Both the position numbers and the translations under genes were made by a program. Below are positions 7,734 through 22,777 of a stretch of 64,000 bases of DNA, piece by piece (the stretch's first letter is position 1; each line of letters opens with the position of its first letter). Under the pieces are notes generated by a model. The model did no database searches, had not been told where the DNA came from, and saw only the letters and a program-made list of their open reading frames with translations. Origin of the DNA: Candidatus Latescibacterota bacterium (GTDB lineage Bacteria; Latescibacterota; UBA2968); contig OZ242195.1 in NCBI GenBank assembly GCA_965205975.1, forward strand, positions 3,648,001 to 3,712,000, in the 5' to 3' direction.

Positions 7734-8414
7734 TCATGTATTCAAAACCTCTTCTACTCGTATCCTCAGATCCGCCGCAGAACCATCCGCGGCATTGAGC
7801 ACCACAGGACCATCATAACCATTCGCCTTGAGCGTGCGGACCACATCCACATCATCCTCCCCAATCGTCACCATCCCGATACGTTCCACATACTTATCCA
7901 CAATCCCAACAGCGTTATCAACATCCATCGCATTGAGCCAGACATGTGCGCGCTCGGGCAAATCGGGCATCAAAGCGTCAAAATCCGCAGCACTTTCCAA
8001 ACACGTATCCACCCCATTCCCTATATTCAGCGTCACATCGGGAATACTTTCAAGCAACGCCTGCACACCGCTCACCAGAGCATCGCGCGCCTCGCGGGAA
8101 CGCGCACCACAGAGAAAACTCGCACACCGCAAACGAAGCGCCCGCGCCAGATGAACATCCCACTCAACCTGCCGCAAATTGGAACCCGGATCATCGCGCA
8201 CATGTAACCCCATCAACGCCACCCCCGCATCGTCAAAATAATCGCGAATCATCCGCACCGACGCATCTGGATGAAAAGGCGAACTCGCCGTAAACGCACA
8301 ATGCAACACCATAGCATCAAAACCCGCTGCCTTCGCAATCTTCAAGGCAGCGGGCAACACAGCTTTTGGACACATAACAGGATCAAAACACAAACGCAAA
8401 ATAAGCCTCCTCAC
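7734..8414 (-). CDS. Xylose isomerase-like TIM-barrel protein (degenerate)
   Basis: 226 aa; AAGFDAM.L, LARAL and L...GYDGPVVL patterns of the AP_endonuc_2 family; metal ligands look degenerate. Confidence 0.55.
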   Translation of the reverse strand: MRRLILRLCFDPVMCPKAVLPAALKIAKAAGFDAMVLHCAFTASSPFHPDASVRMIRDYFDDAGVALMGLHVRDDPGSNLRQVEWDVHLARALRLRCASFLCGARSREARDALVSGVQALLESIPDVTLNIGNGVDTCLESAADFDALMPDLPERAHVWLNAMDVDNAVGIVDKYVERIGMVTIGEDDVDVVRTLKANGYDGPVVLNAADGSAADLRIRVEEVLNT

Positions 8415-8439
8415 CTCTTAGCGATCAGCTAAAAATCCC

Positions 8440-8472
8440 CTGGATTGCGGCTTTAAGCATGCCGCAATGACA
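8440..8472. repeat. Short palindromic interspersed element
   Basis: CTGGATTGCGGC...TGCCGCAATGACA; related copy at 57044-57077; followed by CTTCACACTT repeats. Confidence 0.7.
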
Positions 8473-8509
8473 ATCTTACTTCACACTTCTTCCTTCACAC
8501 TTCCTACTT

Positions 8510-9289
8510 CTACATCCCCTCCCAATACGCCCACATATCATCCGGATCTTCAAACTTCAGATCATCCCAATTCGTCCACCGAAAACGCGTAATAATCGCC
8601 ATGCGAATCTCATCGCTACAATTCATACTCGCGCTGTGAATCAAATGACTGTGCCAGAGCATCGCGGATCCCGCCGGCCCTGAAATCTCCTCATAATCAT
8701 CCTCATCCCAATCGAGAATCTCCAGCGGCCTCGTCGAACGCGGCTCCCCCTCGTAAATCGGCAACGCGTAAAACGCCTTACCCAGACTCACCCGCGAATG
8801 GGTCTTAAAATAATCCGCCATGTGTTTATGCGTCCCTGGCCACACGCAGGTACCTCCGCCCTGGGGCTTCACATCATTGAGATACAGCGTAATCCCCACC
8901 GTCCAATTATTCACAACACCGCTACCAAGCCCGTGACCATCCATATGATTACCCCTGGGACCTACCCATTCCCCACCCTGTGGAAACCGCAAATTCGCCG
9001 ACGTAATTGGCGGATGCAAAGGCGCCAGCCGCCCCTTACCCGCCAGCTCCTCAACCATACTGTACAGCGGCGAATCGTAAATCAGCGCGTGAAATGCCGC
9101 GTGACCATCCATCCCCTGAGACCCCTCTTTCCCAACCCACGTAGAAGGATCATTGCGATCCACAGGCAGATGATCCCAGATCACATCTCGCGCGGCTTCC
9201 ATCTGCTCGGGCGTCACCACATCGCGTTTGATCACATAGCCCTTCTCCCGAAACACCTCTTTATCATCAACCGTCAAATACGCCATCAC
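8510..9289 (-). CDS. Phytanoyl-CoA dioxygenase (PhyH) family protein
   Basis: F.EKGYV, HMD motif, GGT..WPGTH, distal H (LIHSA), C-terminal R. Confidence 0.85.
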   Translation of the reverse strand: MMAYLTVDDKEVFREKGYVIKRDVVTPEQMEAARDVIWDHLPVDRNDPSTWVGKEGSQGMDGHAAFHALIYDSPLYSMVEELAGKGRLAPLHPPITSANLRFPQGGEWVGPRGNHMDGHGLGSGVVNNWTVGITLYLNDVKPQGGGTCVWPGTHKHMADYFKTHSRVSLGKAFYALPIYEGEPRSTRPLEILDWDEDDYEEISGPAGSAMLWHSHLIHSASMNCSDEIRMAIITRFRWTNWDDLKFEDPDDMWAYWEGM

Positions 9290-10740
9290 ACACTCCTTCC
9301 ATCGGCGATATACCGCTCGACCATCTCTCTGAACTCGCGCACAATACCCGGTTCCTGGTTAAACTTATTATACGACTCAAACGGATCATCCCCCATATGA
9401 TAAAGCTGACCCCTCGCCCCCGGCACAGGACCCGTGCCTGCACACCCATCCACACCGCGCCCCATATCTCCAGAATTATCGCAATCGACAATCAACTTCC
9501 AATCCCCTCGCCGAATCGAAAACACCCCCATGCAGGAATGGTGTATCAAATCATCCCGAACAGGCTCGTTCACACTCATCAACGCGGGCAAAAAACTCGC
9601 ACTATCTTCACCCGCATCTTCTGGAAGCGTCTCCCCCACAATATCCGCCACCGTCGCCATAAAATCCTGCAACCCGACCAGCGCATCGCAAACCGAATTG
9701 GGCGCAACAACACCCGGCCAGCGCGCGATAAACGGCTCTCTGTGTCCTCCCTCCCAGATAAACCCCTTAAAACCGCGCCAATCACCGCAAGACTTGTGAC
9801 CATACGTGCGACCATCACAACCCGGCAAAGCACCATTATCACTCGTCACAATAACCAGCGTATCATCCGCCAACCCACAGCGATCCAGCGCATCCATCAC
9901 CTGCCCCACCATCCAGTCAAACAGCGCGACCATATCCCCCCGGGGACCTGCCTCACTCGCACCGCGCAAAAACTCCGGCACACATTCGACCGTACACGGT
10001 TCATGCGGCGCAGAAGCCGCCAGATAGAGAAAAAATGGCGTATCTTCATCCCTCGCCCGCTCCTCAATATACGCCACAGCCTCCTCTGTAAAAGCCGGAT
10101 CCGCCTCCTTGTGGTCCCAATCCGGAACCATCAACCCGCGCCGACCACCCGCCATCTCAACCGGCTTTTGCACACTCGGAATACCCACCGTCTGATCCTG
10201 ATCGATAAAACAATAAGGCGGTTGCGCTGTCGAACAACCCGATGTCCCGTAAAACCTATCAAACCCCAGCTCAATCGGTCCGCCAGCAATCGGCTTTGAA
10301 AAATCAATCTTATCTTCCTCAACCGGATCGGGTGATCCACCCGGCCACGGCAGGGGCTGATCAAAATCAAACACCTCACCATCCTTCACACCCCAGCCCA
10401 AACCCAAATGCCACTTGCCAAAACACCCCGTGTGATATCCACACTTCTTCAACAAAGAAGCCACCGTCATACGCTCGGGTTCAATCAATGGCAGTTCGTA
10501 ATTGAACAACACATGGGCCTTCAACTCTGTGCGCCAGCAATAACGCCCGGTCAAAATCCCGTATCGCGTGGGCGTACACACCGCCGAAGGCGAATGTGCA
10601 TCTGTAAACCGCATCCCCTCGCGCGCCAACCGATCCATATACGGCGTGGGAATCTTCGACTGCGGATTATAACACCCCACATCCCCATAGCCCATATCAT
10701 CGGCGAGGATATAAACAATATTCGGACGTGTATTTCGCAT
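9286..10740 (-). CDS. Arylsulfatase (S1 family)
   Basis: PNIVYILADDMGYGD, CTPTR, GKWHLG, TSDNG, EGGHR. Confidence 0.92.
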   Translation of the reverse strand: MRNTRPNIVYILADDMGYGDVGCYNPQSKIPTPYMDRLAREGMRFTDAHSPSAVCTPTRYGILTGRYCWRTELKAHVLFNYELPLIEPERMTVASLLKKCGYHTGCFGKWHLGLGWGVKDGEVFDFDQPLPWPGGSPDPVEEDKIDFSKPIAGGPIELGFDRFYGTSGCSTAQPPYCFIDQDQTVGIPSVQKPVEMAGGRRGLMVPDWDHKEADPAFTEEAVAYIEERARDEDTPFFLYLAASAPHEPCTVECVPEFLRGASEAGPRGDMVALFDWMVGQVMDALDRCGLADDTLVIVTSDNGALPGCDGRTYGHKSCGDWRGFKGFIWEGGHREPFIARWPGVVAPNSVCDALVGLQDFMATVADIVGETLPEDAGEDSASFLPALMSVNEPVRDDLIHHSCMGVFSIRRGDWKLIVDCDNSGDMGRGVDGCAGTGPVPGARGQLYHMGDDPFESYNKFNQEPGIVREFREMVERYIADGRSV

Positions 10741-10742
10741 CT

Positions 10743-11153
10743 CTAATCCCTCATATTGATCCACGGTTCATCCCCTGACACATCGACCAGCACCTCACCA
10801 TCGAATTTAGCCGGAGACAAAATCGCCAGAAAAACCAGATCCTCATCCCCGGCATTATACGTCCCATGCACCATATCCATCGGAATATGCGCCGCATCTC
10901 CCGGACCCAGAATTTGCGAATCCCTACCCACCCACTGTTCCGCCGTCCCCGAAATCACATAAATAATCTCTTCCATACACGGATGGCGATGAAACGCGTG
11001 CGCATTGCCTGGCGGCATCGTCACCCGCACCAGCAACAAATGATCCGCCTCGGTCAACCCCTCCCGACTGATCCACTCGTGCGGCCCCCACGGCAATTCC
11101 TCCACCTGCACATCGCCTTGCCTGATAAACCTGAGTACATGGGATTTTGACAT
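10743..11153 (-). CDS. Cupin domain protein
   Basis: HRHPCMEE...GD...IP....H cupin metal motifs; RBS AAGGAG. Confidence 0.85.
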   Translation of the reverse strand: MSKSHVLRFIRQGDVQVEELPWGPHEWISREGLTEADHLLLVRVTMPPGNAHAFHRHPCMEEIIYVISGTAEQWVGRDSQILGPGDAAHIPMDMVHGTYNAGDEDLVFLAILSPAKFDGEVLVDVSGDEPWINMRD

Positions 11154-11327
11154 CGGCGCACTCCTTCTCGCGCTTAATAAGACTGGAATTAGCCAAAATA
11201 AGCCAAATATTTTATTTACAATTAATTATATCAATAAATTCAAGAATAAGACTGAATAAGACCGAATGAGCCAAACCATTTATTAACAAATGGTTATATC
11301 ATATCAATTCGAGAATAAGACCTAATA

Positions 11328-11410
11328 AGCCAAACTTGAGCCAAACTTGAGCCAAACTTGAGCCAAACTTGAGCCAAACTTGAGCCAAACTTGAGCCAAA
11401 CTTGAGCCAA
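11328..11410. repeat. Tandem array of 11-bp unit AGCCAAACTTG (7 full + partial copy)
   Basis: Read directly; preceded by an AT-rich stretch with degenerate AATAAGAC..AGCCAAA motifs. Confidence 0.95.
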
Positions 11411-11419
11411 CACCTCAAG

Positions 11420-12814
11420 TTATAAACGGTTCCACCTTGCATCCCACCCACGACCTGTGGACACCGCCAGCCCAAGCATCTTCAAAATAGCTAAATCTTC
11501 CCGCACCTGCCTTTGGCTGGCCTGCAACTTCATCTGGGCATATATCTCGCGCAATGCCAGACCTTGACCAGCATGATCCAGCATGACAAGAATCGCTTGT
11601 TGTCGCTCGGTCAAGTCTCGCCCTACGCGCTGAGGCGGCACGTATTGGCTGGGGCGAAAGCGCACCGTCACGCAACTGGACACATCCTCAATCTCGGGTT
11701 TTGGCAGACCGGCAGATGTTGTCAACTCTGCCATCTTGAGCGTGCCGCGTCCCCATTGCTCAATGATACCACGTCGGTAGAATACACCAGCGATCAAGGG
11801 ATTCCAGGGTAGCGACTCGTGCGTCTCAAACAATTTCTCCGCAGTCAACCCAAAATGCAGCGAACCAGACGAAGTCACCTCAAGACGGTCATCGTATATC
11901 GCCACGGCCACTGAGCCACCGCCGATTGAGTAATCCCGATGGCACAGTGCGTTCGCCAATGCCTCGCGCAACGCGACCGGTGGATAGAGCGGCTCATCCA
12001 CCCTCTCAAAGATATTTGGAATGATACGCCCCGCTATGGGCAAGTTTTCGATCATAAAACGCTCTGCTCTTGTAAGCAAGGTGAAAGCATTCCCGCGAAA
12101 CTGTCGATTGTCGAGAAAATCCGTACGATCAACGCCGCGAAAACGGGCAACTCGGAGCAGACACTGCGGCATCTCAGCCTCAATCCGCTCAGTAGTCCCA
12201 AACAGCACAACCGCGGCACGCAATAATACGCCGCCTTTGATTAACCCAAGACCCCGCAACAACGCCTCTGGATCGCGTGTCCCCGGATCCTCGGCGCGTC
12301 CTCGGCGGATTGCTTCATCAACTGTGCGATGGATCTCAGATATGTCGAGATCATCAACTGACCAGTCGGTGGCAGGTTGATTCTCCCAACGTTGTTCGCT
12401 GTGCATCCGTTCGAACAACATTTGATTGTATTCATCACGCGACATACTCAAATTGGTATTCCCAACCCGGCGATAGGCGATGCCTCTGTAGCTGTAAGGC
12501 TTCATCTGACCTTGACTAACGCTCACCACAATCACCTCCCGACCTTCCCCCCCAGGAACCCGCTCAATTGCGGGAAAAGCCGGTGGATCAAGCTGCTGGA
12601 TCTCCTCACTCACATCCTCAACCGTGCGATCACTCACCTGCTGGCCGGTCACTTTTCCTCCCGGCGTAACACCAAACAGGACATTTCCTCCCCGATGATT
12701 GAGCATGGCACAAACAGTTTGAGTAGCCTCACGGCGTCTTCCAGTCGTCTGCTTGAACTCCAGCGTCTCGGACTCGCCAGTTGCAATTAGAGATGTGATG
12801 TACTCAAGCGTCAT
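11420..12814 (-). CDS. AlbA_2 (Schlafen-like) + HATPase_c_4 + HTH protein (RecG-C-like regulator)
   Basis: GESETLEFK, AMLN..GG...FGV, REALANALCHRDY, NPLIA, EQWGRG, C-terminal wHTH. Confidence 0.85.
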   Translation of the reverse strand: MTLEYITSLIATGESETLEFKQTTGRRREATQTVCAMLNHRGGNVLFGVTPGGKVTGQQVSDRTVEDVSEEIQQLDPPAFPAIERVPGGEGREVIVVSVSQGQMKPYSYRGIAYRRVGNTNLSMSRDEYNQMLFERMHSEQRWENQPATDWSVDDLDISEIHRTVDEAIRRGRAEDPGTRDPEALLRGLGLIKGGVLLRAAVVLFGTTERIEAEMPQCLLRVARFRGVDRTDFLDNRQFRGNAFTLLTRAERFMIENLPIAGRIIPNIFERVDEPLYPPVALREALANALCHRDYSIGGGSVAVAIYDDRLEVTSSGSLHFGLTAEKLFETHESLPWNPLIAGVFYRRGIIEQWGRGTLKMAELTTSAGLPKPEIEDVSSCVTVRFRPSQYVPPQRVGRDLTERQQAILVMLDHAGQGLALREIYAQMKLQASQRQVREDLAILKMLGLAVSTGRGWDARWNRL

Positions 12815-12881
12815 GGACGAATCTCCGCATTGCGTCGCCTAATCTTGATCTACTTAGTCAGATATGAGGTCTCAATTTCTC

Positions 12882-14381
12882 TCAAATCAAATCGCGCGCA
12901 TCGACAATAGCTTTCAGCTTTGCCTCCGCCACACTTGCCGAAGCCACGGGATTATCGGCGAACGTGGCAAAACCGCAATCCGGTGTCAGCAAAACGCGCG
13001 CTTCTCCAAACAGATTGATCGCCTCTGAAATTCGCCGCCGAATATCTTCCACCAACTCCACCGAATCCAGCTTCTGATTCACCACACCAACCCCTACGCG
13101 CTTATCGTCCGGAACCGCTTTCAACACACCCACATCACCAGCCCGCTCGGTACAAAGCTCCAGAAACAGCGACCCCACATCCACCCGCTTCAGCACATCC
13201 ATCAGCGCACCATACCCCCCGGAAAGCGCCGCGGACTCATCCCGCGTCCAATTGCCCCGGCACATATGCAACCCCAGCCGCTCCCCCGGCAAACCCCGCA
13301 CAACCTCATTCAAAAGGCCGACCGCAAAATCGAGCTCCACCGACGCCTCTAACTTCTCGCTCAAAGCCCCACACATAAAACTGCGATTCCCGGTCGCACC
13401 CCCAAAAACCACCTCTGTCAAAACCGGCTCATCGAACTGCACCAGCGCAACACCCGCCGCCAGCAAAAAATGCACCTCCTCCCGCAAAACCCGCACCACA
13501 TCCCGCGCCAATTCATCCCGCGACTCGTACGGACGCTCCCTGAGACAATCCAGCCACATCGTACGCGTCAGCAAATAAGGCCCGGGCAGCGCCACCTTTA
13601 TCGGCTTATCCGAACAAGAACTCGCAAACTCAAACTCGTGAACCGCCAGCGGGCGACTCCGCCCCAACTTCCCGTACACCACCGGATGCCGCACCTCAGC
13701 CGCCGGAACATCCAGCGCGCGCAGCTCCCGCTCAAACTTCTCCGAATCATCCACCATCGCCGTCAAATCGCTCAGCGGAATAAGCTGGCAATTATCCAGC
13801 AACCCACCCACAAAACTCGCATAACTATCCCGACGCTGCTCCCCATCCGTCAGCACATCAACCCCCGCGCGAGACTGCGCCCCAATACAAAGCCGCACCG
13901 CATCATCCGCCGTCGCCTGAAACTCTGCCTCATCCAACCTGCCCTCGAGCCGATCATGCACCGCCTGCAGCATCCAGCGAGGACGCGGCCAACTCCCAAT
14001 CCCCATAACAGACAACGGCGCAATCCCCGGCGCGGGCGCAGGACCCGGCAGCGACTCGGGAATCGTCACCGCCACCCGAAGTTGCTCCCCAACAGAAGCC
14101 ACAGCCCACCCGCGATCCTCAAACGGCCCCTTGCAAACGAGATAACTGCGCTGCCGCCCCACCTTTGTCCACGACACCAACTCATTGCTCGTCAACCGAC
14201 ACCATGCGGGCAACTCGACCTCAACCGTCGCATCCGTCGATAAAATCTCCAGCAACCCACCGCGCGCCAGCGGGTCAATATGCCGGCGAATCAGCAATAA
14301 CAAACCGCCGCCGCAATCCAAATCTCCACCGTCAAAACTGACATCGGACGCATATTTGTGTCGTTCTATCGGCTCCAACAC
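12882..14381 (-). CDS. Cobalamin-independent methionine synthase II-like protein with N-terminal TusA-like domain
   Basis: N-term DGGDLDCG...LPAWCR (TusA fold); GSWPRP, TDGEQRR, QFDEP, Zn ligands HMC, E and TPDCG. Confidence 0.85.
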   Translation of the reverse strand: MLEPIERHKYASDVSFDGGDLDCGGGLLLLIRRHIDPLARGGLLEILSTDATVEVELPAWCRLTSNELVSWTKVGRQRSYLVCKGPFEDRGWAVASVGEQLRVAVTIPESLPGPAPAPGIAPLSVMGIGSWPRPRWMLQAVHDRLEGRLDEAEFQATADDAVRLCIGAQSRAGVDVLTDGEQRRDSYASFVGGLLDNCQLIPLSDLTAMVDDSEKFERELRALDVPAAEVRHPVVYGKLGRSRPLAVHEFEFASSCSDKPIKVALPGPYLLTRTMWLDCLRERPYESRDELARDVVRVLREEVHFLLAAGVALVQFDEPVLTEVVFGGATGNRSFMCGALSEKLEASVELDFAVGLLNEVVRGLPGERLGLHMCRGNWTRDESAALSGGYGALMDVLKRVDVGSLFLELCTERAGDVGVLKAVPDDKRVGVGVVNQKLDSVELVEDIRRRISEAINLFGEARVLLTPDCGFATFADNPVASASVAEAKLKAIVDARDLI

Positions 14382-14386
14382 ACCTC

Positions 14387-14749
14387 CTAATACGTAATAC
14401 AGGGCGTCCCATCGGAAAGAAACTCCACCAGCGCAGCGCCCCCAACCATAATTGCCCCATCGACCAGATTATTTTCATCCAAACCGCGCTTCTTAAAACA
14501 CGGCGCACACACGTAAATCGTCCCACCACCACCCACAAACAAATCCATAAGATCCTTCAGCGGCAAAAAACCCTCCTCTGCCACATCGTCGGCATAGCCC
14601 TTCTGGGAAAGCCGAACGCCCTCCGTAGTCATAAAAAGGAGCGTCTCCTTCTCCGATCCCAGCGCGGCATTGGCAACTACAAAAGCCACAGTCGCTTTAT
14701 CCGTATCGTCCTTCGCACAAGTCAAACTAACACAGAATTTTCCAGCCAC
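14387..14749 (-). CDS. DsrE/DsrF-like family protein
   Basis: 120 aa; F...EGV.L, GG.IYVCAPC..KRG; RBS AAGGAG, GTG start. Confidence 0.85.
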   Translation of the reverse strand: MAGKFCVSLTCAKDDTDKATVAFVVANAALGSEKETLLFMTTEGVRLSQKGYADDVAEEGFLPLKDLMDLFVGGGGTIYVCAPCFKKRGLDENNLVDGAIMVGGAALVEFLSDGTPCITY

Positions 14750-14764
14750 TTATTTCTCCTTATA

Positions 14765-15004
14765 TTATTTTAGTTTCTCTTCTATCCAGTAAAACGGGTG
14801 ATCCGCACGAACCATCCGCCGCCCAGTCATGCGGCACCAGGCGGGCAAATCAACAGGCGCGCCCGGATCATAAGCCGTAAGCTTCAAAACCTCGCCCTCC
14901 TCGAGCTTTTGCATCCGCATTCGAAGCAAAATAATAACCTCGCCGCACCCCATGTGTCCCGCATCCCATTCATCGGCTGCGACAATATCTCGTTCATCCG
15001 ACAT
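14765..15004 (-). CDS. Sulfurtransferase TusA/SirA family protein
   Basis: WDAGHMGCGE...GEVLKL...DPGA..DLPAWCRMTG. Confidence 0.85.
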   Translation of the reverse strand: MSDERDIVAADEWDAGHMGCGEVIILLRMRMQKLEEGEVLKLTAYDPGAPVDLPAWCRMTGRRMVRADHPFYWIEEKLK

Positions 15005-15006
15005 CT

Positions 15007-16383
15007 TCACTCCTGCGGCAATTCCTCGGCACTAATATCGATCTCCTCGATCAACCGCGCCAGATCTGCTTCTACCTCTGCCTGCACATCGGCATACGCC
15101 GGATCGCCGTACACACTCGTCATCTCCCAGGGATCCTTTTCCAAATCGAACAAATCGCGCTCGCCCGTTCGATGTACCGCGAGCGTATAATTTTGCGTAC
15201 GCACGCCATAGTGCTTCGTCGGCCCATCCCAATACGCATAAAAAGCCGACTGCCGCCAATCCTCTATCGTCTCCCCCTCACACAGCGCGCGAAAACTTCT
15301 GCCCTGCACCTGTGCATCGGGTTGCAACCCGGCAAAATCGAGATACGTCGCGCCAAAATCTACATTCACCACAATATCCTCATTCACCGAACCCGGCGCA
15401 ATCGCCCCTGGATACCGCATCACATAAGGCATGAGAAGCGACTCCTCCAGAATCAAACGCTTATCAAAATACGAATGCTCGCCCAAAAACATACCCTGAT
15501 CAGAAGTATATACCACAATCGTATTCTCCGTCAACCCCTCCTCATCCAGATAATCCAGCAACCGCCCCACACCCTCATCAATCGCCGTAATACACCGCAA
15601 ATAATCCTTTACATACTTCTGATAAGCCGCATGAATCTTCTCCGTCGTATTCATCCCCGTCGTATCCAACCGCCCCGTAGGCCACGCTCTTCCCCGGACG
15701 CCCTCATCCATCCGCTCGGCCTGCGAGAGCATCGTGCGGTGATGATTCTCCAACGCGCTGGACACCTTGTCAAACGGCTTATACAAATTCGACGGCTCGG
15801 GCAAATCCCCATCCGCAAACAAATCCGCATGACGAGGCGCGTACTCCCACAAACCATGGGGCGCTTTGTGGTGACACAGCATCAAAAAGGGCTTATCCGG
15901 ATCGCGAGCCTTCAACCAGTTGAGCGACAAATCCGTAATAATATCCGTCGCGTACCCCTCGTACTGCGTCGGCTCGCCATTGCGCGTAAACGACGGATCA
16001 AAATAAGCCCCCTGTCCCGGCAACACCTCCCAATAATCAAACCCATCCGGCTCAGACCCCAAATGCCACTTACCCGCAATACCCGTTTGATATCCAGAAG
16101 CCTGCAACTGCCGCACAAAATTGGGGTGATCGTCACTCAGCGGTTGATTCAACCGCAACACCCCATTTTTATGGCTATATTGCCCCGTAATAATACTCGC
16201 CCTGCTCGGCGAACACAGCGCATTATTGCAAATACAATTGTCAAACCGCATCCCCTCACGAGCGATGCGGTCAATATTCGGTGTATCCACCACCTCATTC
16301 AGCCATCCGTTATAACAACTGATGGCATTCACGGTATGATCATCAGACATAATGTAGAGAATATTGGGACGTGGATCAGACAT
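15007..16383 (-). CDS. Sulfatase (S1 family)
   Basis: Own RBS GGAGG and ATG (MSDPRPNILYIMSDDH), CSPSR, GKWHLG, TSDQG. Confidence 0.9.
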   Translation of the reverse strand: MSDPRPNILYIMSDDHTVNAISCYNGWLNEVVDTPNIDRIAREGMRFDNCICNNALCSPSRASIITGQYSHKNGVLRLNQPLSDDHPNFVRQLQASGYQTGIAGKWHLGSEPDGFDYWEVLPGQGAYFDPSFTRNGEPTQYEGYATDIITDLSLNWLKARDPDKPFLMLCHHKAPHGLWEYAPRHADLFADGDLPEPSNLYKPFDKVSSALENHHRTMLSQAERMDEGVRGRAWPTGRLDTTGMNTTEKIHAAYQKYVKDYLRCITAIDEGVGRLLDYLDEEGLTENTIVVYTSDQGMFLGEHSYFDKRLILEESLLMPYVMRYPGAIAPGSVNEDIVVNVDFGATYLDFAGLQPDAQVQGRSFRALCEGETIEDWRQSAFYAYWDGPTKHYGVRTQNYTLAVHRTGERDLFDLEKDPWEMTSVYGDPAYADVQAEVEADLARLIEEIDISAEELPQE

Positions 16384-16758
16384 TAAAATTCCTCCAGTGG
16401 TTAAGTGTAGCACTCCCGATTCATGGCGTATGATTTCCTCAATTTGTAAGACTACGCCGGGCAATTCGACAATAACAATGTTCCACACAATATCAAAATT
16501 AACACCAAAATAATGATGAATGAGTCTGTCCCTGACGCCCGCCATACTTTTCCAAGGGACATTTGGATATTTGGTACGAAGTTCTGTGGATAGATTTTTA
16601 GTCGCTTCTCCAATAATTTCCAGATTGCGTATCACGGCATCCTGCGTCCTCGTATCCGACAAAAACGTTTCATAAGTCATTCCAGCCGTATAGACTTTTA
16701 TCCGCCGTGCGGCTTCTCGAATATCACTCAGAAAGTCTATATTTGTTCGATTAGACAT
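16384..16758 (-). CDS. HepT-like (DUF86) HEPN ribonuclease; no stop codon, in frame with downstream sulfatase
   Basis: DAVIRNLEIIGEA, PW...G.RDRLIHHY (Rx4HxY); 125 codons continuing into the sulfatase ATG. Confidence 0.85.
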
Positions 16759-17059
16759 ACACGATACTTTCTTTGATATTCTGGGCAACATGCGGAATTC
16801 GAATCCCTTGAATACCAGCATCGGTCAGGACATCTACCCGTTTGCCCAGGATAGCCTCAAGATATTCGCTAAACTCAATGAACCGAAGACCTATTGGATG
16901 TTCAAATTCCACAACAAGGTCAATGTCACTTGATTGGGTGGGCGTACCTTTCGCATAAGACCCAAACAAACCTATTCTCTTAACCCCGTACTCAGACGCC
17001 AGATAAGGGCGGTTTTCCGAGAGAATATTTGCGATTTTTTCTTTTGTCAACATTGCCAT
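16751..17059 (-). CDS. MntA-like minimal nucleotidyltransferase antitoxin
   Basis: IGLFGSYAKG.....SDIDL (GSx10DxD), VD; overlaps the HepT start. Confidence 0.88.
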   Translation of the reverse strand: MAMLTKEKIANILSENRPYLASEYGVKRIGLFGSYAKGTPTQSSDIDLVVEFEHPIGLRFIEFSEYLEAILGKRVDVLTDAGIQGIRIPHVAQNIKESIVYV

Positions 17060-17087
17060 TTTCTCCCTCAAGTGAATTCTCTTTCTT

Positions 17088-18347
17088 CTACTCCGGAACA
17101 TAATCATCAATAAATTCCGGCATCATATCCAACACCTTTTGCAAGCGTTCACGCGCCGCTTCAGAATCGGCATCGCCCTGCCCCAAAACAATATCGTACT
17201 CTTCCAGCCGATCCGCAGGCACATCGTAAAACCGCCCATCGTGATAAATTTTAAACCGATGTTCCCGCGCAAACTGCCCCGCGTGATCTTGACCAAAACC
17301 AAAACGCGGGTTGTAATGACAAAAAATCCAATCCCTCGGATCGCCCCGTTCGCCCCGCAACTGGGGCAAAAAACTCCGCCCATCACACGGCATCCCCTCT
17401 GGAATAGGCGCATCTGCCAAATCCATCAGCGTCGGCAAAAAATCGCTAAAATCCACCAGATCATCTAACACCACGCCCTCTGGCGCCACACCCTTCCAAA
17501 AAGCAATAAAAGGCACATGTGTCCCCGCATCCGGCATCGTGCCCTTACCGCCCACAATCTCGACACCACCCTCAAGCTGGGACGTAATCGTGCGATGCGT
17601 ACCATTATCACTCGTAAACATCACCAGCGTATTCTCGAGCAAATCCAGCGCCTCGAGCTTCTCCACAATCCGCCCCACCAGCTTATCCGCATACGCCACC
17701 ATATCGGCAAAATAGCGCGTATCCTGCTCACCTCTCCGACCTCTATCCCGCCACTCCGGGCTATCGGGCGTGGGAACAAAAGGCGCGTGAACCAGAATCA
17801 TCGGATAATAAGCAAAAAAAGGCACATCCCGATGTCGCTCAATAAAATCCAGCAAATAATCACAACAAATATCGGGACCATACCGATCTTCGATATAATC
17901 GTCTGGCAACCATTCCCCATTACATTCAATTTGCGGATTTGCATATCGCCCCTTTGCAACGCGTGCAGGATCTTCTGGAAGCGGCGTCATATTCCACAAA
18001 CAATGCTCGTCAAACCCAAAATGCGCCGGCATCTTATTATCCTTACTCAACTGCCACTTACCCGCAACACACGTAGCATACCCCGCATCCTTTAACAAAT
18101 TGCCAAACGTCTTTTCTTTGGGATTCAAATAGGCGAACCTGTCGTAATTCCGAAAATTGTACTGCCCCGTCATAATCTCCACGCGAGAAGGCGTACACAG
18201 CGGCGTCGAATAACAATGGGAAAAGAGAATCCCCCGCGATGCCAGATCGTCCAATACTGGCGTCTCATAAGTCGTACTCCCGTAACAACTCAAACACTCA
18301 AACCCCATATCATCTGCCATAATCAACACAACATTTGGTCTCGCCAT
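17088..18347 (-). CDS. Sulfatase (S1 family)
   Basis: RPNVVLIMADDMG, CTPSR, GKWQL, TSDNG. Confidence 0.9.
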   Translation of the reverse strand: MARPNVVLIMADDMGFECLSCYGSTTYETPVLDDLASRGILFSHCYSTPLCTPSRVEIMTGQYNFRNYDRFAYLNPKEKTFGNLLKDAGYATCVAGKWQLSKDNKMPAHFGFDEHCLWNMTPLPEDPARVAKGRYANPQIECNGEWLPDDYIEDRYGPDICCDYLLDFIERHRDVPFFAYYPMILVHAPFVPTPDSPEWRDRGRRGEQDTRYFADMVAYADKLVGRIVEKLEALDLLENTLVMFTSDNGTHRTITSQLEGGVEIVGGKGTMPDAGTHVPFIAFWKGVAPEGVVLDDLVDFSDFLPTLMDLADAPIPEGMPCDGRSFLPQLRGERGDPRDWIFCHYNPRFGFGQDHAGQFAREHRFKIYHDGRFYDVPADRLEEYDIVLGQGDADSEAARERLQKVLDMMPEFIDDYVPE

Positions 18348-18808
18348 ACGCTCCTCACCGGGAATGATTCTGTTTATTTTAGAACAATTAAGATATACCT
18401 TCAGCAGAACACAGTCCACTTGAAAAAATCGGCATCTCTATCTTTGATAGGGAGGGAAGTAACACTATTATCTAATTGACTTTCTAACTGATGTTACGCA
18501 AGAACCACTGCAACAGCCACCTGGTCAAGCGGTACATATCTTTCACATAACCACTCATTTATCGCTCAAAATATACACTTTTTCCGCCGACATTTGTGCT
18601 CCTTCACCTCCGCTTCAACAAACATTCCAAAAATTCAAGTTGTGAATAAAACCGCAATACTACATATTGAAGGCATAATGAGGTGCCTGCATTTCTGTCG
18701 AGTCCCTTTTATCGCTCAATTCTGTGATAATTGGCCTGATATTTGCTTGAGGTCTGACTGTTGCGTTTGTCCAAAATACAACCAACCTTCAGATCTGAGG
18801 CATCTCAC

Positions 18809-19741
18809 ATGGCTGAATTTGATACGATATCCAAACATCTGATTCAGAAATACCCCAGTGACTTTGCTGGCTTTACCCTCGGGCGTGATGATGTTGAAGT
18901 TCTTGCTGTCATGGACACAGAGCAATACACTGTTGAAGCACGCCAAACCGATAGCCTGATTCGCGTGCGTATGGATGGTGAGGAGGTATTGGTCCACAAC
19001 GAGTTTCAAACAACGGATAGCACCAATCCACCTATGCCTCGCCGCATGGCGGGCTATATCGGACATGCGATTCGGCAATACGGCCTGCCGATATATTCCA
19101 ATGTCATCTACCTGCGTCCCAATGCGGGGCAGCGCGATACCGGGTACTATGTCCAGGCGCATCTCGACTACGAAATCACGATTCGGTATCGCGTGATCAG
19201 ACTGATTGAGATAGAAGGTCAACCCATCCTGAGCGGGAGACATTCAGGACTGATTCCATTCACACCGTTGATGAAGCCCCCTGAAGGGGTGGCTTCGGAT
19301 GCGTGGTTGCATCAGTGTATTCACACGGCTCGGACGCGTTCCATAGATCGGTCATATAGGGCGGATTATCTGGCTGGCATGGTGGCGTTGAGCGAGTTGG
19401 TATATGCGTCTGAAACGATTTCTAATATTATTTTCCAGGAGGGCATCATGGACATCTTGCGCGAATCATCACTTTTTCAATCCCTTACTCAGGAAAGTAG
19501 AGAGAAAGCCAGAGAAGAGGGCATTGAAGAGGGCATTGAGCAAGGTTTTGAGCAGGGGGGCAGGCAACGCACCATCGAAGCTATCCTCGAAGTGCTGGAG
19601 ATTCGATTTGACCTGAACGAAGCGCACCCCCTATCCACCCGCATTGCCGCCATTGACGATCTGCAACGCCTCAAGCAGTTGCACCGTGCGGCGATACAGG
19701 TGCCCAATCTCGAAGCATTTCAGCGCATATTGGATACGTGA
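18809..19741 (+). CDS. Rpn family (recombination-promoting nuclease/putative transposase) PD-(D/E)XK protein
   Basis: D..SK.L, R.TD, HNEFQ, MP.RM..Y, C-terminal EEG.EEG.EQG repeats and LE.RF domain. Confidence 0.8.
   Translation: MAEFDTISKHLIQKYPSDFAGFTLGRDDVEVLAVMDTEQYTVEARQTDSLIRVRMDGEEVLVHNEFQTTDSTNPPMPRRMAGYIGHAIRQYGLPIYSNVIYLRPNAGQRDTGYYVQAHLDYEITIRYRVIRLIEIEGQPILSGRHSGLIPFTPLMKPPEGVASDAWLHQCIHTARTRSIDRSYRADYLAGMVALSELVYASETISNIIFQEGIMDILRESSLFQSLTQESREKAREEGIEEGIEQGFEQGGRQRTIEAILEVLEIRFDLNEAHPLSTRIAAIDDLQRLKQLHRAAIQVPNLEAFQRILDT
19448..19741 (+). CDS. Putative internal small Rpn C-terminal protein (RpnS-like, 97 aa)
   Basis: AGGAGG at 19437-19442, 5 nt before an in-frame ATG (MDILRES...). 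Confidence 0.55.
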   Translation: MDILRESSLFQSLTQESREKAREEGIEEGIEQGFEQGGRQRTIEAILEVLEIRFDLNEAHPLSTRIAAIDDLQRLKQLHRAAIQVPNLEAFQRILDT

Positions 19742-19776
19742 CGTGATTTCCATAGAACAAAGGGGAAGGACACAAA

Positions 19777-20625
19777 ATGAACATCTCGCTCACATCAACA
19801 GAGCAAAGCTCTGGCGAACTGGCAAAAGACAAATTGGCAAATGCGATAGAGGCAATACGGCACGACGGCTATGTCATCATCGAGCAAGTGGTGAACCACG
19901 CGATCCTCGACGCCCTCAAAACGCGCATGGATGAAGACTCTGCAAAGCTGATTGAGGCACAAAAATGGGGTGGCGCAGGTGGTGTACAGGGTCATTTACA
20001 GCAAGGTCCGCCACCATTTGACCCATACCTATCCCCAGACATCCTCGTCAATCCCTATGCCGTTCAGATCTCACGAGAAATGCTGGGCACAGGGTTCTAC
20101 TGCTGCTTTTACAACGGCAACACCAATACCCCAAACAGCACCTTTCAACCTCTTCATTCTGACGGCGTTCACCTCTGGGGAGAGCAAAACCGCCCCCATC
20201 CAGCAACCCAACTCATCATCAACATCTTTCCCCAGGACACATCTGACAAAAACGGATCGACACAAATCTGGCCAGGCTCACACCTCGACATGCGCCCGGT
20301 AACAGACGAAACAGAAGCCGATCGTCAATCCTTTTCCCCACCCATTCAGGCCACCCTCCAAAAAGGCGACATCTTGATTCGCGACTCACGCCTCTGGCAT
20401 CGCGGCGTACCAAATCCATCTGATCACAACCGCCACATGATCGCAGTTGTTTACAACATCGGCTGGCTGGTCAAACGGCGCACGCTCTTCTTTGATAAAA
20501 GCAGTAAAAAAATATTCGAAGCAAGCGGCGTTGATCCCAATGCCGAATTCATCGATCCCCCGTTCGAATACCTATTTGAAATGGCGTGCAGAAAAATAAA
20601 AAACGACCCCATGCGAGGCGTCTAA
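19777..20625 (+). CDS. Phytanoyl-CoA dioxygenase family protein
   Basis: DGYV, QPLHSD, NGST.IWPGSH, LWHRG..N.S...R. Confidence 0.85.
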   Translation: MNISLTSTEQSSGELAKDKLANAIEAIRHDGYVIIEQVVNHAILDALKTRMDEDSAKLIEAQKWGGAGGVQGHLQQGPPPFDPYLSPDILVNPYAVQISREMLGTGFYCCFYNGNTNTPNSTFQPLHSDGVHLWGEQNRPHPATQLIINIFPQDTSDKNGSTQIWPGSHLDMRPVTDETEADRQSFSPPIQATLQKGDILIRDSRLWHRGVPNPSDHNRHMIAVVYNIGWLVKRRTLFFDKSSKKIFEASGVDPNAEFIDPPFEYLFEMACRKIKNDPMRGV

Positions 20626-21476
20626 TCCGCTTCATTCTCGCTCGGCATAACCGCCCAATCGGTACGCAGTTCGACAGCGAGGTCAGCCGGTGGTTGCATG
20701 AACCGCTTAACCCGGACACTGGCTTTGGCCTGGCGTCTGGGTCCGGCCAGTTTCCAGGCGTTGTAATGAAATTTCCCTTCGGGTTGCATCACGCGGACAT
20801 TCAACGTACGGCGTGGCTTCCGGGTCTGGTTCATGCCAGCGCAGTGCAGACAGGCCGCATTGACCACCAGCAGATCACCTGGATCGCCGATAACCTGGAC
20901 TCTGTTGCTATAGTAATTCGGGTTGGAATCCGGCACCTCGGGGTTTTCATCAGCCTTGAAGCGATGAGTACCCGGTATCACAGAAGTCGCACCGTTTTCC
21001 GCCGTGTACCCATCGAGCAAAAAAAAGAACCACAGCCCCCTGTGCTTGCCATTGGCGGTAAGGCCGGGGCGGAAATCGCGATGGATGCCTTCAGACTGCT
21101 CTCCCGGGTTGTAGCGTTGGGTATTGGCGACAAGGTCAGAGAAGTGGTAGGTACCCAGGGCATGCTCGCAAATCGCGTGAACAGTGCCGTGGTCGAGCAA
21201 TTCTATCGCCGCATCGCCCCACAAAAAACAGGCACGGGCATTGGGATTCAGGTCGAATTTGCGGGTCCCGTACCTGTCGCCGATATTCACATCGGACAGC
21301 TTCATCCCGCCGCGCCAGGCGGCAATATAGTCATCGGCGGCACGCTGGGCGATATCGCGCAAAGGATTGAGGTATTCATGTGCGATCTGGTTCCGTATAA
21401 TGGTATAGCCGTCGCGATCGAGATTGGCGAGGTGTTCGTCCAGTTCGCTATCGCCGAGGGGATGGACGGGTCGCAT
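20622..21476 (-). CDS. Phytanoyl-CoA dioxygenase family protein
   Basis: DGYT, IHRD, NGAT.VIPGTH, LHCAG.N.T..PRR; 4-bp convergent overlap. Confidence 0.85.
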   Translation of the reverse strand: MRPVHPLGDSELDEHLANLDRDGYTIIRNQIAHEYLNPLRDIAQRAADDYIAAWRGGMKLSDVNIGDRYGTRKFDLNPNARACFLWGDAAIELLDHGTVHAICEHALGTYHFSDLVANTQRYNPGEQSEGIHRDFRPGLTANGKHRGLWFFFLLDGYTAENGATSVIPGTHRFKADENPEVPDSNPNYYSNRVQVIGDPGDLLVVNAACLHCAGMNQTRKPRRTLNVRVMQPEGKFHYNAWKLAGPRRQAKASVRVKRFMQPPADLAVELRTDWAVMPSENEAD

Positions 21477-21493
21477 GGGCTGGTCTCCTTATC

Positions 21494-22777
21494 TCATTCT
21501 GCCTGCTTTTGTTGATTTCGCAAAATCTCGTCGAGGAGTGGCAGCCCTTTGAGCCGCGCTTTCCAGTTTCGAGGCTGTTTTTCGGCAAGACTCATAATGC
21601 CTTTGTTGTATTTAAAACCCTCGCTGGTCACATTCTCAATAATCGGATGCCAACTATCCCCCGTACGGTCTCTCACAACCCCGACAGAGGGACCTCTAAC
21701 CCGTTTGATCTTCCTGTCATTCTTATCAAACCGTAGCTCTTTCAGGTATTCCTCCGGAACATTCGCAAGTCCCTTGAGTGCAATGGCCGCGTTTGTCCCA
21801 AATATCGCATGGATATTCTTTACTGTAGTCCCATCTGCAAACACACCGGGTTTATAACGCTCATCCGCCTGATTCCGTGTCTCCACAAAACCAGGTCCCA
21901 TCGTCACAGCGAAAGCACAGCTCTTCACAGTCACACCGTCGATCTTGACAACGCCATTTTGAGCTTTGTGTGGTCCAAGCAACACCGCAGTACTGCCGTT
22001 CTCACAATATAGATTCTCTGCCGTAATATCATGCACCCCGCCATTATGCCCGCCAGCACCCGTCTCCAGTCTAAAAGTCACTCCACCGCCAATGGCTTCG
22101 AGATTTTCAAAATGGATGGTCTCCCCCGCATGCATCTGAACCAAACCGTATCCCGGGCTGGAATTAGTACTTCTCAAGTTTCTCGCCAGACCATCGGTGG
22201 GCCTGAAAACGTCCCCGCTTTCGACATCCCTATCCCTGGACGGCGTAAAAATGAATGCAGAATAAGTGGTAAAACTATCCTTAACATCAATATCTGAGAG
22301 CAGAAAATTTTTGACCTTCCTGCTATTGACCGTCCGTATGCCTTCCCCCGCCATACTTCCGCGATCTGAATAATCGACAATAAACTTACCGCCCAGCCCG
22401 CGAATACTGACATTCTCTATGGATTCGGCATTCCTCCCTGTACCCAATCCAAAAACAATGGTCTTCGTACCTTTGGGCCAATAGGGTTTGATAACCGTGT
22501 CTTTCTCGATCAACAGGTGCACATTGGACTTCAAGTTGATGCCTCCAAAACGATAAACCCCTTTCGGAACAATCAGGCGTCCACCACCTTTTGCCGAGAC
22601 CTCATCAATCGCTTTTTGCAATCGCTCACTCTGATTGCTCTCAGCCCCATCATCAACCAGTCCGAAATCCGTCTTCAGATTCATCGTCAAACCGTCTGGA
22701 TCCATGGTCTCCACATATGCCGCCTCTGAAACCGCGGCCATTACAAGCACGGTCAGGATCAACAATATGGTCTTCAT
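21494..22777 (-). CDS. Secreted beta-helix glycoside hydrolase, iota-carrageenase-like (GH82)
   Basis: Signal peptide; LQKAID....GGG.L..PKG.Y; GYGLVQ, GGVTFRLETG, AVLLGPH...NG, SC..AV...GFVE match GH82 motifs as I recall them. Confidence 0.78.
   Translation of the reverse strand: MKTILLILTVLVMAAVSEAAYVETMDPDGLTMNLKTDFGLVDDGAESNQSERLQKAIDEVSAKGGGRLIVPKGVYRFGGINLKSNVHLLIEKDTVIKPYWPKGTKTIVFGLGTGRNAESIENVSIRGLGGKFIVDYSDRGSMAGEGIRTVNSRKVKNFLLSDIDVKDSFTTYSAFIFTPSRDRDVESGDVFRPTDGLARNLRSTNSSPGYGLVQMHAGETIHFENLEAIGGGVTFRLETGAGGHNGGVHDITAENLYCENGSTAVLLGPHKAQNGVVKIDGVTVKSCAFAVTMGPGFVETRNQADERYKPGVFADGTTVKNIHAIFGTNAAIALKGLANVPEEYLKELRFDKNDRKIKRVRGPSVGVVRDRTGDSWHPIIENVTSEGFKYNKGIMSLAEKQPRNWKARLKGLPLLDEILRNQQKQAE

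Follow-up and report, generated by a model that had tools for sequence, protein, structure and literature searches.

The closest described relatives of the enzyme considered here are the core methionine synthases MesA to MesD, in particular the MesD/MesX system represented by structure 3RPD (Price et al. 2021, PMC7857596). These share with it a single MetE barrel, the H-C-E-C zinc ligands and the S/E/D residues that bind the amino acid, and both rely on a small partner where MetE would have its folate barrel. We describe a three-gene cassette, tusA–dsrE–tusA::metE-core, on the minus strand of a 64,000-nucleotide stretch of a Candidatus Latescibacterota genome (GCA_965205975.1, contig OZ242195.1, positions 3,648,001 to 3,712,000; the window). 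Its enzyme differs from MesD in sequence (26% identity), in its N-terminal TusA domain, in a loop with an F-M-C/U motif, and in having selenocysteine (Sec) forms. Its partners are TusA, DsrE and OsmC, whereas the core synthases use MesX or a corrinoid protein; the text of Price et al. 2021 (PMC7857596) mentions neither TusA nor DsrE. The cassette is conserved and apparently unstudied, and it joins known folds in an undescribed combination. From the sequence data we suggest, tentatively and at a little under even confidence, that it moves selenium, for salvage or trafficking, from or to an organoselenium amino acid on one side and the cellular selenium pool (the SelD/SelA pathway) on the other.

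The pairing of the two carriers also has described counterparts. YedF/FdhU (TIGR03527; PMC5322559) likewise combines TusA (SirA) with DsrE, shares the link to sel genes and Sec-lyase-type desulfurases, and has been tied to SelD. However, YedF is a single two-domain protein with CPxP and CGxC motifs, whereas the cassette has separate genes with CG and CxPC motifs and a zinc enzyme. TIGR03527 was not among the NCBIfam matches listed, and SirA and DsrE do not form a single chain here. The DsrE3–TusA pairs of sulfur oxidisers (PMC4175335, PMC11094781) share adjacent dsrE and tusA genes and conserved cysteines, and DsrE-to-TusA sulfur transfer is established in such other systems. Unlike those pairs, the cassette had no sHdr or LbpA neighbours in the loci scanned, and its partner is a MetE-type enzyme. 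The SAO selenoprotein locus of Haft and Gwadz (10.1101/2022.07.06.499078) also comprises overlooked, database-truncated selenoproteins, with a DsrE-like protein and an ATP-binding cassette (ABC) importer, but it has no MetE-like member and 'MetE' does not occur in its text. In a literature search that covered few subscription journals, and main texts only, we found no publication describing the cassette or a MetE-like protein with Sec.

The cassette and its enzyme

The initial annotation of the window had described three tightly spaced genes, and the open reading frame (ORF) calls give the same gaps of 15 bp and then 5 bp. Its free tusA gene is real, but the ATG at 15004 lies two codons inside the frame; we take the GTG at 15010 as the start, which overlaps the stop codon of the upstream sulfatase gene. 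These are not chance ORFs, because the fusion is matched over its full length with 75–97% identity in the 120 best of 5020 matches. A scan of GTDB confirmed 344 relatives, the best 80 of which are the basis of the GTDB locus counts given below: 62 loci from Chloroflexota, 9 from Latescibacterota, 5 from Verrucomicrobiota and 4 from Acidobacteriota. The closest relatives of the fusion among them (95–97% identity) are from Ca. Latescibacterota. A synteny survey, which had been proposed as a check on the cassette, showed the fusion and the three-gene order intact in 78 of the 80 loci, while the remaining two run off their contigs. Coordinates are collected in the table.

Features of the cassette in the window
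Feature	Coordinates	Strand	Details
Free TusA-family carrier	14765..15010	-	81 aa from GTG; PF01206 E 4e-8
DsrE-family carrier	14387..14749	-	120 aa; PF02635 E 1e-12; 3MC3 match E 5e-8
TusA::MetE-core fusion	12882..14381	-	499 aa; Pfam and model
Fused TusA domain, residues 8-85	14127..14360	-	C23, C61; low-confidence linker 91-100 follows
Single-barrel MetE catalytic core, residues 116-499	12885..14036	-	Zn- and amino-acid-binding residues
C337 codon TGT, F-M-C loop	13371..13373	-	Sec position in related enzymes

The C-terminal part of the fusion is a MetE-type barrel. Meth_synt_2 (PF01717) matches residues 128–479 (E 1e-29), and the single barrel and zinc ligands that had been claimed for it are all present (H372, C374, E408 and C469, within a MetE catalytic-domain fold). 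S130, E181 and D317, kept in 70–71 of 71 fusion rows, align to S22, E73 and D188 of 3RPD, which are among the homocysteine-binding residues of MetE/MesD (PMC7857596). A model built from a 122-row alignment had a predicted local distance difference test score (pLDDT) of 91.6 and a predicted template modelling score (pTM) of 0.83, and was used in place of a first model from 28 rows (pLDDT 73.6). The closest structure to its barrel is MesD 3RPD with bound selenomethionine (SeMet; Z 37.5, root-mean-square deviation (rmsd) 2.4, 321 residues aligned, 26% identity). Epoxyalkane:coenzyme M transferase is another single-barrel MetE-fold zinc thiol-alkyltransferase that is not a methionine synthase; unlike it, the cassette enzyme keeps the MetE amino-acid-binding residues, and no alkene monooxygenase neighbours were seen.

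The fusion is distinct from annotated methionine synthases. No NCBIfam model reaches its cut-off on it, those for methionine synthases falling far short (the best scores 152 against 406 bits), and its identity to 3RPD falls short of the ~55% or more that identifies MesD (Price, PMC7857596). The N-terminal folate-binding barrel of full-length MetE is not present (TIGR01371, 74 against 930 bits), a TusA domain being found there instead; an alignment of the model with 1T7L that reaches residue 32 hints that this domain is placed where the first barrel of MetE lies. A complex prediction for the barrel (116–499) and zinc with TusA (1–90) was used neither for nor against contact, as it scored 0.00 twice and its controls did not fold. 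C198 and C279 were considered as further catalytic residues and dropped, being kept only in the fusion forms and not in stand-alone relatives. Two divergent members (P0129, P0145) are without the F-M-C cysteine, and P0129 is also without the zinc ligands.

The free TusA scores 33.3 bits with Pfam, above the cut-off, and has cysteines at C22 (CG motif) and C59 (AWCR). In the fusion, the Pfam match (residues 28–77, E 3e-4) is below the cut-off, but comparison of residues 8–85 with E. coli TusA (3lvj_C; Z 12.3, rmsd 1.8, 77 aligned) confirmed the fold of the TusA-like domain that the initial annotation had placed there. Both have the TusA-family fold with the carrier cysteine at the start of helix 1, and in both the CPxP motif is replaced, by CGE and CGG, in line with the C-G for C-P reported earlier. 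The second cysteine, in AWCR, had been thought peculiar, but it matches the cysteine of 'PGFC' in E. coli TusA. Since both cysteines align with the E. coli TusA pair, only C-G for C-P is atypical. The carrier cysteines are nearly invariant in 81 free TusA sequences chosen from the loci by motif and in 71 fusion rows (C23 in 71/71, C61 in 70/71). The CxxC recognised in DsrE is present as CAPC (C81-x-x-C84) and is kept in 48/48 motif-selected homologues. No TusA domain occurs elsewhere in the window's genome, and a search for longer free-TusA fusions was uninformative (1 match among 24 candidates).

Probable selenocysteine, and selenium genes, in relatives

The most telling residue of the enzyme, C337, was absent from the residues listed by the initial annotation. 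It lies in the F-M-C motif after the D317 strand, in a loop (residues 331–340) where confidence in the barrel model is lowest (pLDDT 62), and it is kept in 70/71 fusion rows, while the F-M-C cysteine occurs in 0/11 of the more distant core enzymes aligned. One homologue, P0183, ends exactly ahead of the C337 position, and this position was therefore tested for selenocysteine. With P0183 as the lead, a scan of metagenomes gave 569 matching relatives, of which 80 were kept. Of these 80, 33 had an in-frame TGA at the C337 position and 47 a Cys codon, a share that is not a prevalence, given the lead sequence and the selection of 80. In 26 of the 33 TGA forms the frame stays open past both the HxC and the DCG ligands; the remaining 7 stop at contig ends.

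The TGA forms carry a recoding signal. The bacterial selenocysteine insertion sequence (bSECIS) model has a loop of 3–9 nt with G[G/U] at its first two places, 16–37 nt past the UGA (PMC13188914). A SECIS-like hairpin was found in 29/31 testable TGA loci, with a 6-nt loop 18 nt downstream of the UGA, compared to 10/125 Cys controls (4/46 stand-alone and 6/79 fusion forms). Four-fold sites in and at its stem are nearly frozen (entropy 0–0.9 bits, compared to 1.2–1.8 at flanking four-fold sites), and the stem is 96.8% paired, compared to 30–50% in slid controls. In a quick tree of 76 rows (17/80 GTDB loci, 14/22 complete Sec loci and 22/36 Cys loci), the Sec forms made one clade (support 100) within the F-M-C family (support 96), which includes the window protein. 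The Sec forms lie on metagenome contigs, with selB on the same contig only in L107. In a separate Tissierellia cluster, 220-aa members end at the C337 position and 395-aa members have W there, which fits TGA, at the protein level only; databases list the Sec-type members as 220-aa fragments under the name 'methionine synthase II'. As Sec is usually the catalytic residue, C337 is probably catalytic. The relatives probably hold an apparently unlisted selenoprotein family: Table 1 of a May 2026 review, which covers 119 families, contains no MetE-like selenoprotein (PMC13188914), and further papers searched by term name none either.

The Sec loci have the order TusA–DsrE–TusA::OsmC–MetE(Sec), with DsrE in 18/33 and TusA::OsmC in 20/33, many contigs being short. 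Because these partners are kept, the window cassette looks like a version of this system that has no OsmC and in which the second TusA has become part of the enzyme. Among the Cys forms, an operon of OsmC, an Rv1679-like acyl-CoA dehydrogenase, an Rv1680-like binding protein and a MetE-like protein with F-M-C recurs (L116, L122, L126, L127, L129, L130, L161, L162 and others). Both the acyl-CoA-dehydrogenase-like and the Rv1680-like genes are below their model cut-offs, and no paper on the function of this operon turned up.

Cassette genomes are enriched in selA, which is present in 76/80. Too few cassettes occurred within even samples of two phyla (among 350 Chloroflexota genomes, the centre genome aside, the fusion and a stand-alone relative each occurred once; in Verrucomicrobiota, the cassette occurred in 0/300), so the cassette genomes were compared against these samples as background. 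In Chloroflexota, selA was present in 60/62 cassette genomes and 270/350 background genomes, and in Verrucomicrobiota in 4/5 and 17/300, respectively (nominal P ~1e-4 in each phylum, which kinship overstates). Profiling inside Latescibacterota did not discriminate, with selA in 108/125.

Gene neighbourhoods point the same way. selB lies within 8/80 GTDB loci, from about three lineages, compared to 0.4 expected, and one locus (L071) has selA, selB, selC and selD at the cassette. Paracoccus ferrooxidans pFER4 and P. versutus have tusA and dsrE, then two unknown genes, and then the fusion, which selA and trxB follow directly; upstream lie genes for a divergent SufS and a UGSC selenoprotein. On two other loci (L159, and L156 with the same layout) the cassette is surrounded by PhnC/PhnE-like genes and a gene for a putative selenate-binding ABC protein (TIGR04553; in L159, 337 bits with a cut-off of 250), and in L098 a TIGR01977 desulfurase follows the Sec enzyme. 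The window's genome itself has selA, a TGA-containing selD and tRNA-Sec. No selD scored above the cut-off on the two Paracoccus replicons, the chromosomes lying outside the search.

Database annotation splits the UGSC-family selenoprotein of pFER4 (L173:3496-4065, minus strand), whose in-frame TGA gives U-G-S-C, into two hypothetical genes. Within the Paracoccus cassette, a 168-aa membrane protein whose CxxC lies in a hydrophobic segment (L173:7853-8359, plus strand) and a 522-aa exported-looking protein (L173:8369-9937, plus strand) are both without a Pfam or NCBIfam match.

A proposed selenium relay and its alternatives

How might such a cassette work? On the reading we prefer, it would be a self-contained, selenium-linked system for chalcogen transfer. 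The conserved residues suggest that the MetE-type barrel would hold a homocysteine- or methionine-like amino acid, or the corresponding selenium compound, and that zinc would bind its chalcogen. The exchange of Cys and Sec suggests that residue 337, in the mobile loop, would then form a covalent intermediate at the zinc site. From there the group would move to the tethered TusA domain, then to DsrE and the free TusA, a route proposed because of the fusion, the gene order and the known DsrE–TusA transfer. Thioredoxin reductase or OsmC-like partners would reset the thiols. In SelD, Sec lies in a flexible selenium-binding loop (PMC13188914). The initial annotation had proposed that protein-bound sulfur is channelled to or from the zinc site. 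A covalent relay to this site is still the best reading, given the conserved fusion and order and the near-invariant cysteines, but the evidence points to selenium: Sec at C337 in relatives, the co-occurrence with selA and the sel-gene neighbours. It is possible, albeit doubtful, that the family is a (seleno)enzyme on the methionine-synthase barrel that breaks or makes the C–Se bond of a selenomethionine- or selenohomocysteine-type amino acid; that the Cys/Sec loop and a TusA–DsrE(–OsmC) relay would then replace the methyl-donor module we hold with the same reserve.

Several observations weigh against selenium salvage. Sec in an enzyme shows a reactive nucleophile, not a selenium substrate, and the window's own enzyme has Cys (codon 337 is TGT), with no in-frame UGA and no SECIS. 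Covariation in the hairpin stem is weak, with 1 compensatory change and 31/500 shuffles scoring as high. A long distance separates the cassette from selA and selD in the window's genome, and the TIGR04553 transporter was not found there. Many genomes of the main host phyla have selA anyway (108/125 and 271/351), most selA-positive genomes are without the cassette (the fusion is in 11/125 Latescibacterota genomes), and four of the 80 cassette genomes, all fragmented, are without a selA match, these misses coming from short contigs. The P values are overstated because the hosts are related. Furthermore, many Cys-form relatives lie beside OsmC, acyl-CoA-dehydrogenase-like and Rv1680-like genes, or beside rhodanese and DsrE2 genes, which fit sulfur chemistry.

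This last point favours a relay of sulfur that would serve to alkylate thiols or break down organosulfur compounds, including S-alkylation and detoxification, in which persulfide from a desulfurase or rhodanese would pass through DsrE and TusA to C337 and zinc, or in reverse, Sec in relatives being merely a better nucleophile. Sulfur carriage is established for TusA and DsrE, some loci adjoin SufS, rhodanese/MST-like and DsrE2 genes, and OsmC is near 30/47 stand-alone Cys-form metagenomic loci. However, a sulfur relay leaves the selA enrichment of Cys-only cassettes and their placement in sel operons unexplained, and the sulfatase context is not conserved; we consider it rather unlikely. Alternatively, the relay could carry alkyl groups: C337 or U337 would take a methyl or alkyl group from a zinc-activated thio- or selenoether, or donate one to zinc-bound homocysteine, and the carriers would shuttle it, making the enzyme a methyltransferase or demethylase that needs neither cobalamin nor folate. 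The seven functional residues of MetE are all conserved, alkyl transfer is the activity of the fold, Sec-alkyl intermediates are known from glycine reductase, and the cassette has no corrinoid partner. On the other hand, no methyl-donor gene is conserved nearby, and TusA and DsrE are not known to carry alkyl groups; we consider this relay unlikely.

Finally, the enzyme could be an ordinary core methionine synthase of the MesA–D type, with carrier cysteines that merely protect or reactivate the Zn-thiolate site. This would agree with SeMet-bound MesD as the closest structure and with the intact zinc and homocysteine residues, but we consider it improbable. The methionine-synthase models score far below their cut-offs, the cassette is absent from 12/21 genomes of its genus, and the extra Cys/Sec is unexplained. 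The window's genome encodes a full MetH, and MetH-sized frames occur in 21/50 cassette genomes; since 75% of genomes with MesD have MetH as well (PMC7857596), MetH here is compatible with an ordinary synthase. The corrinoid iron–sulfur protein (CoFeSP) subunit that would mark MesB/MesC (AcsC/AcsD, PF03599) was not found in the genome (0/1), which is 98% complete, in a search whose controls gave matches. MesX (DUF1852, PF08908) had no match in the genome, but none in the control genomes either, and was not among the neighbours scanned. No S-adenosylmethionine, S-adenosylhomocysteine or B12 riboswitch was found in positions 8000–22000 of the window, in 8 GTDB loci or in 17 metagenomic loci. The same genome has a second single-barrel MetE-like gene with zinc motifs (G000:C1:350871-351917; L175:871-1917). 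It is below all NCBIfam cut-offs and far from the F-M-C family, and lies among polysaccharide-export-like genes.

An accessory unit and its significance

The cassette is an accessory unit, and has possibly been transferred. The fusion occurs in 9/21 genomes of the window's genus. In L166, from a 96%-identical relative, the upstream sulfatase gene runs directly into the cupin gene, leaving an empty site, and L168 is likewise; L167, L169 and L170 were uninformative at this junction. Nothing beyond the three genes is conserved around the cassette across lineages in the GTDB loci. The G+C content of the fusion gene is 59%, compared to 51% for the genome, and the nearest tree neighbours of the window fusion include Dehalococcoidia. 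Empty sites, patchy presence, unconserved flanks, G+C content and tree neighbours together argue for an accessory unit and make the sulfatases incidental. A functional link to the sulfatases, which had been offered as a clue, was therefore rejected.

Some neighbouring genes are hints of integration: in two Dehalococcoidia loci a tRNA gene closely precedes the cassette (L008:7732-7805 and L016:7723-7796), and in L011 a recombinase gene lies upstream. In the window, a Schlafen AlbA_2/RecG-C ATPase-like gene (11420-12814, minus strand) lies between the cassette and the cupin gene, and is not at this place in L004–L007. At 15007-16821 and 16751-17110 (both minus strand), a nucleotidyltransferase–HepT pair lies between two sulfatase genes. 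HepT runs in frame into the downstream sulfatase (a 604-aa ORF), which retains its own ribosome-binding site and ATG. This read-through is also found in L005, while L004 and L007 have only the nucleotidyltransferase and L002 and L006 have neither. Viral contigs gave only 2 distant matches (24–26% identity). Contigs of 4/4 metatranscriptomes cover parts of the cassette, although contigs cannot show transcription. One frameshifted database protein (P0176) contains, by eye, fusion pieces with homocitrate-synthase-like and NifW-like text, which hints at a nif-cluster neighbourhood in that organism.

The analysis yields a candidate selenoprotein family that the May 2026 inventory of 119 families does not include (PMC13188914). 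Within a widespread and uncharacterised family of MetE-like proteins, it picks out one residue, C337/U, as the probable centre of catalysis. It is also a warning against annotating cassette enzymes as methionine synthases. The cassette offers a testable route for bacterial selenium delivery to SelD, a step that has been called unresolved (PMC13188914), and since cultured, harmless Paracoccus strains have it in an operon with selA and trxB, the question is directly testable. If the enzyme does act on a C–Se bond, the cassette would provide dedicated, pyridoxal phosphate-free salvage of organic selenium into selenoprotein synthesis in many bacterial phyla.

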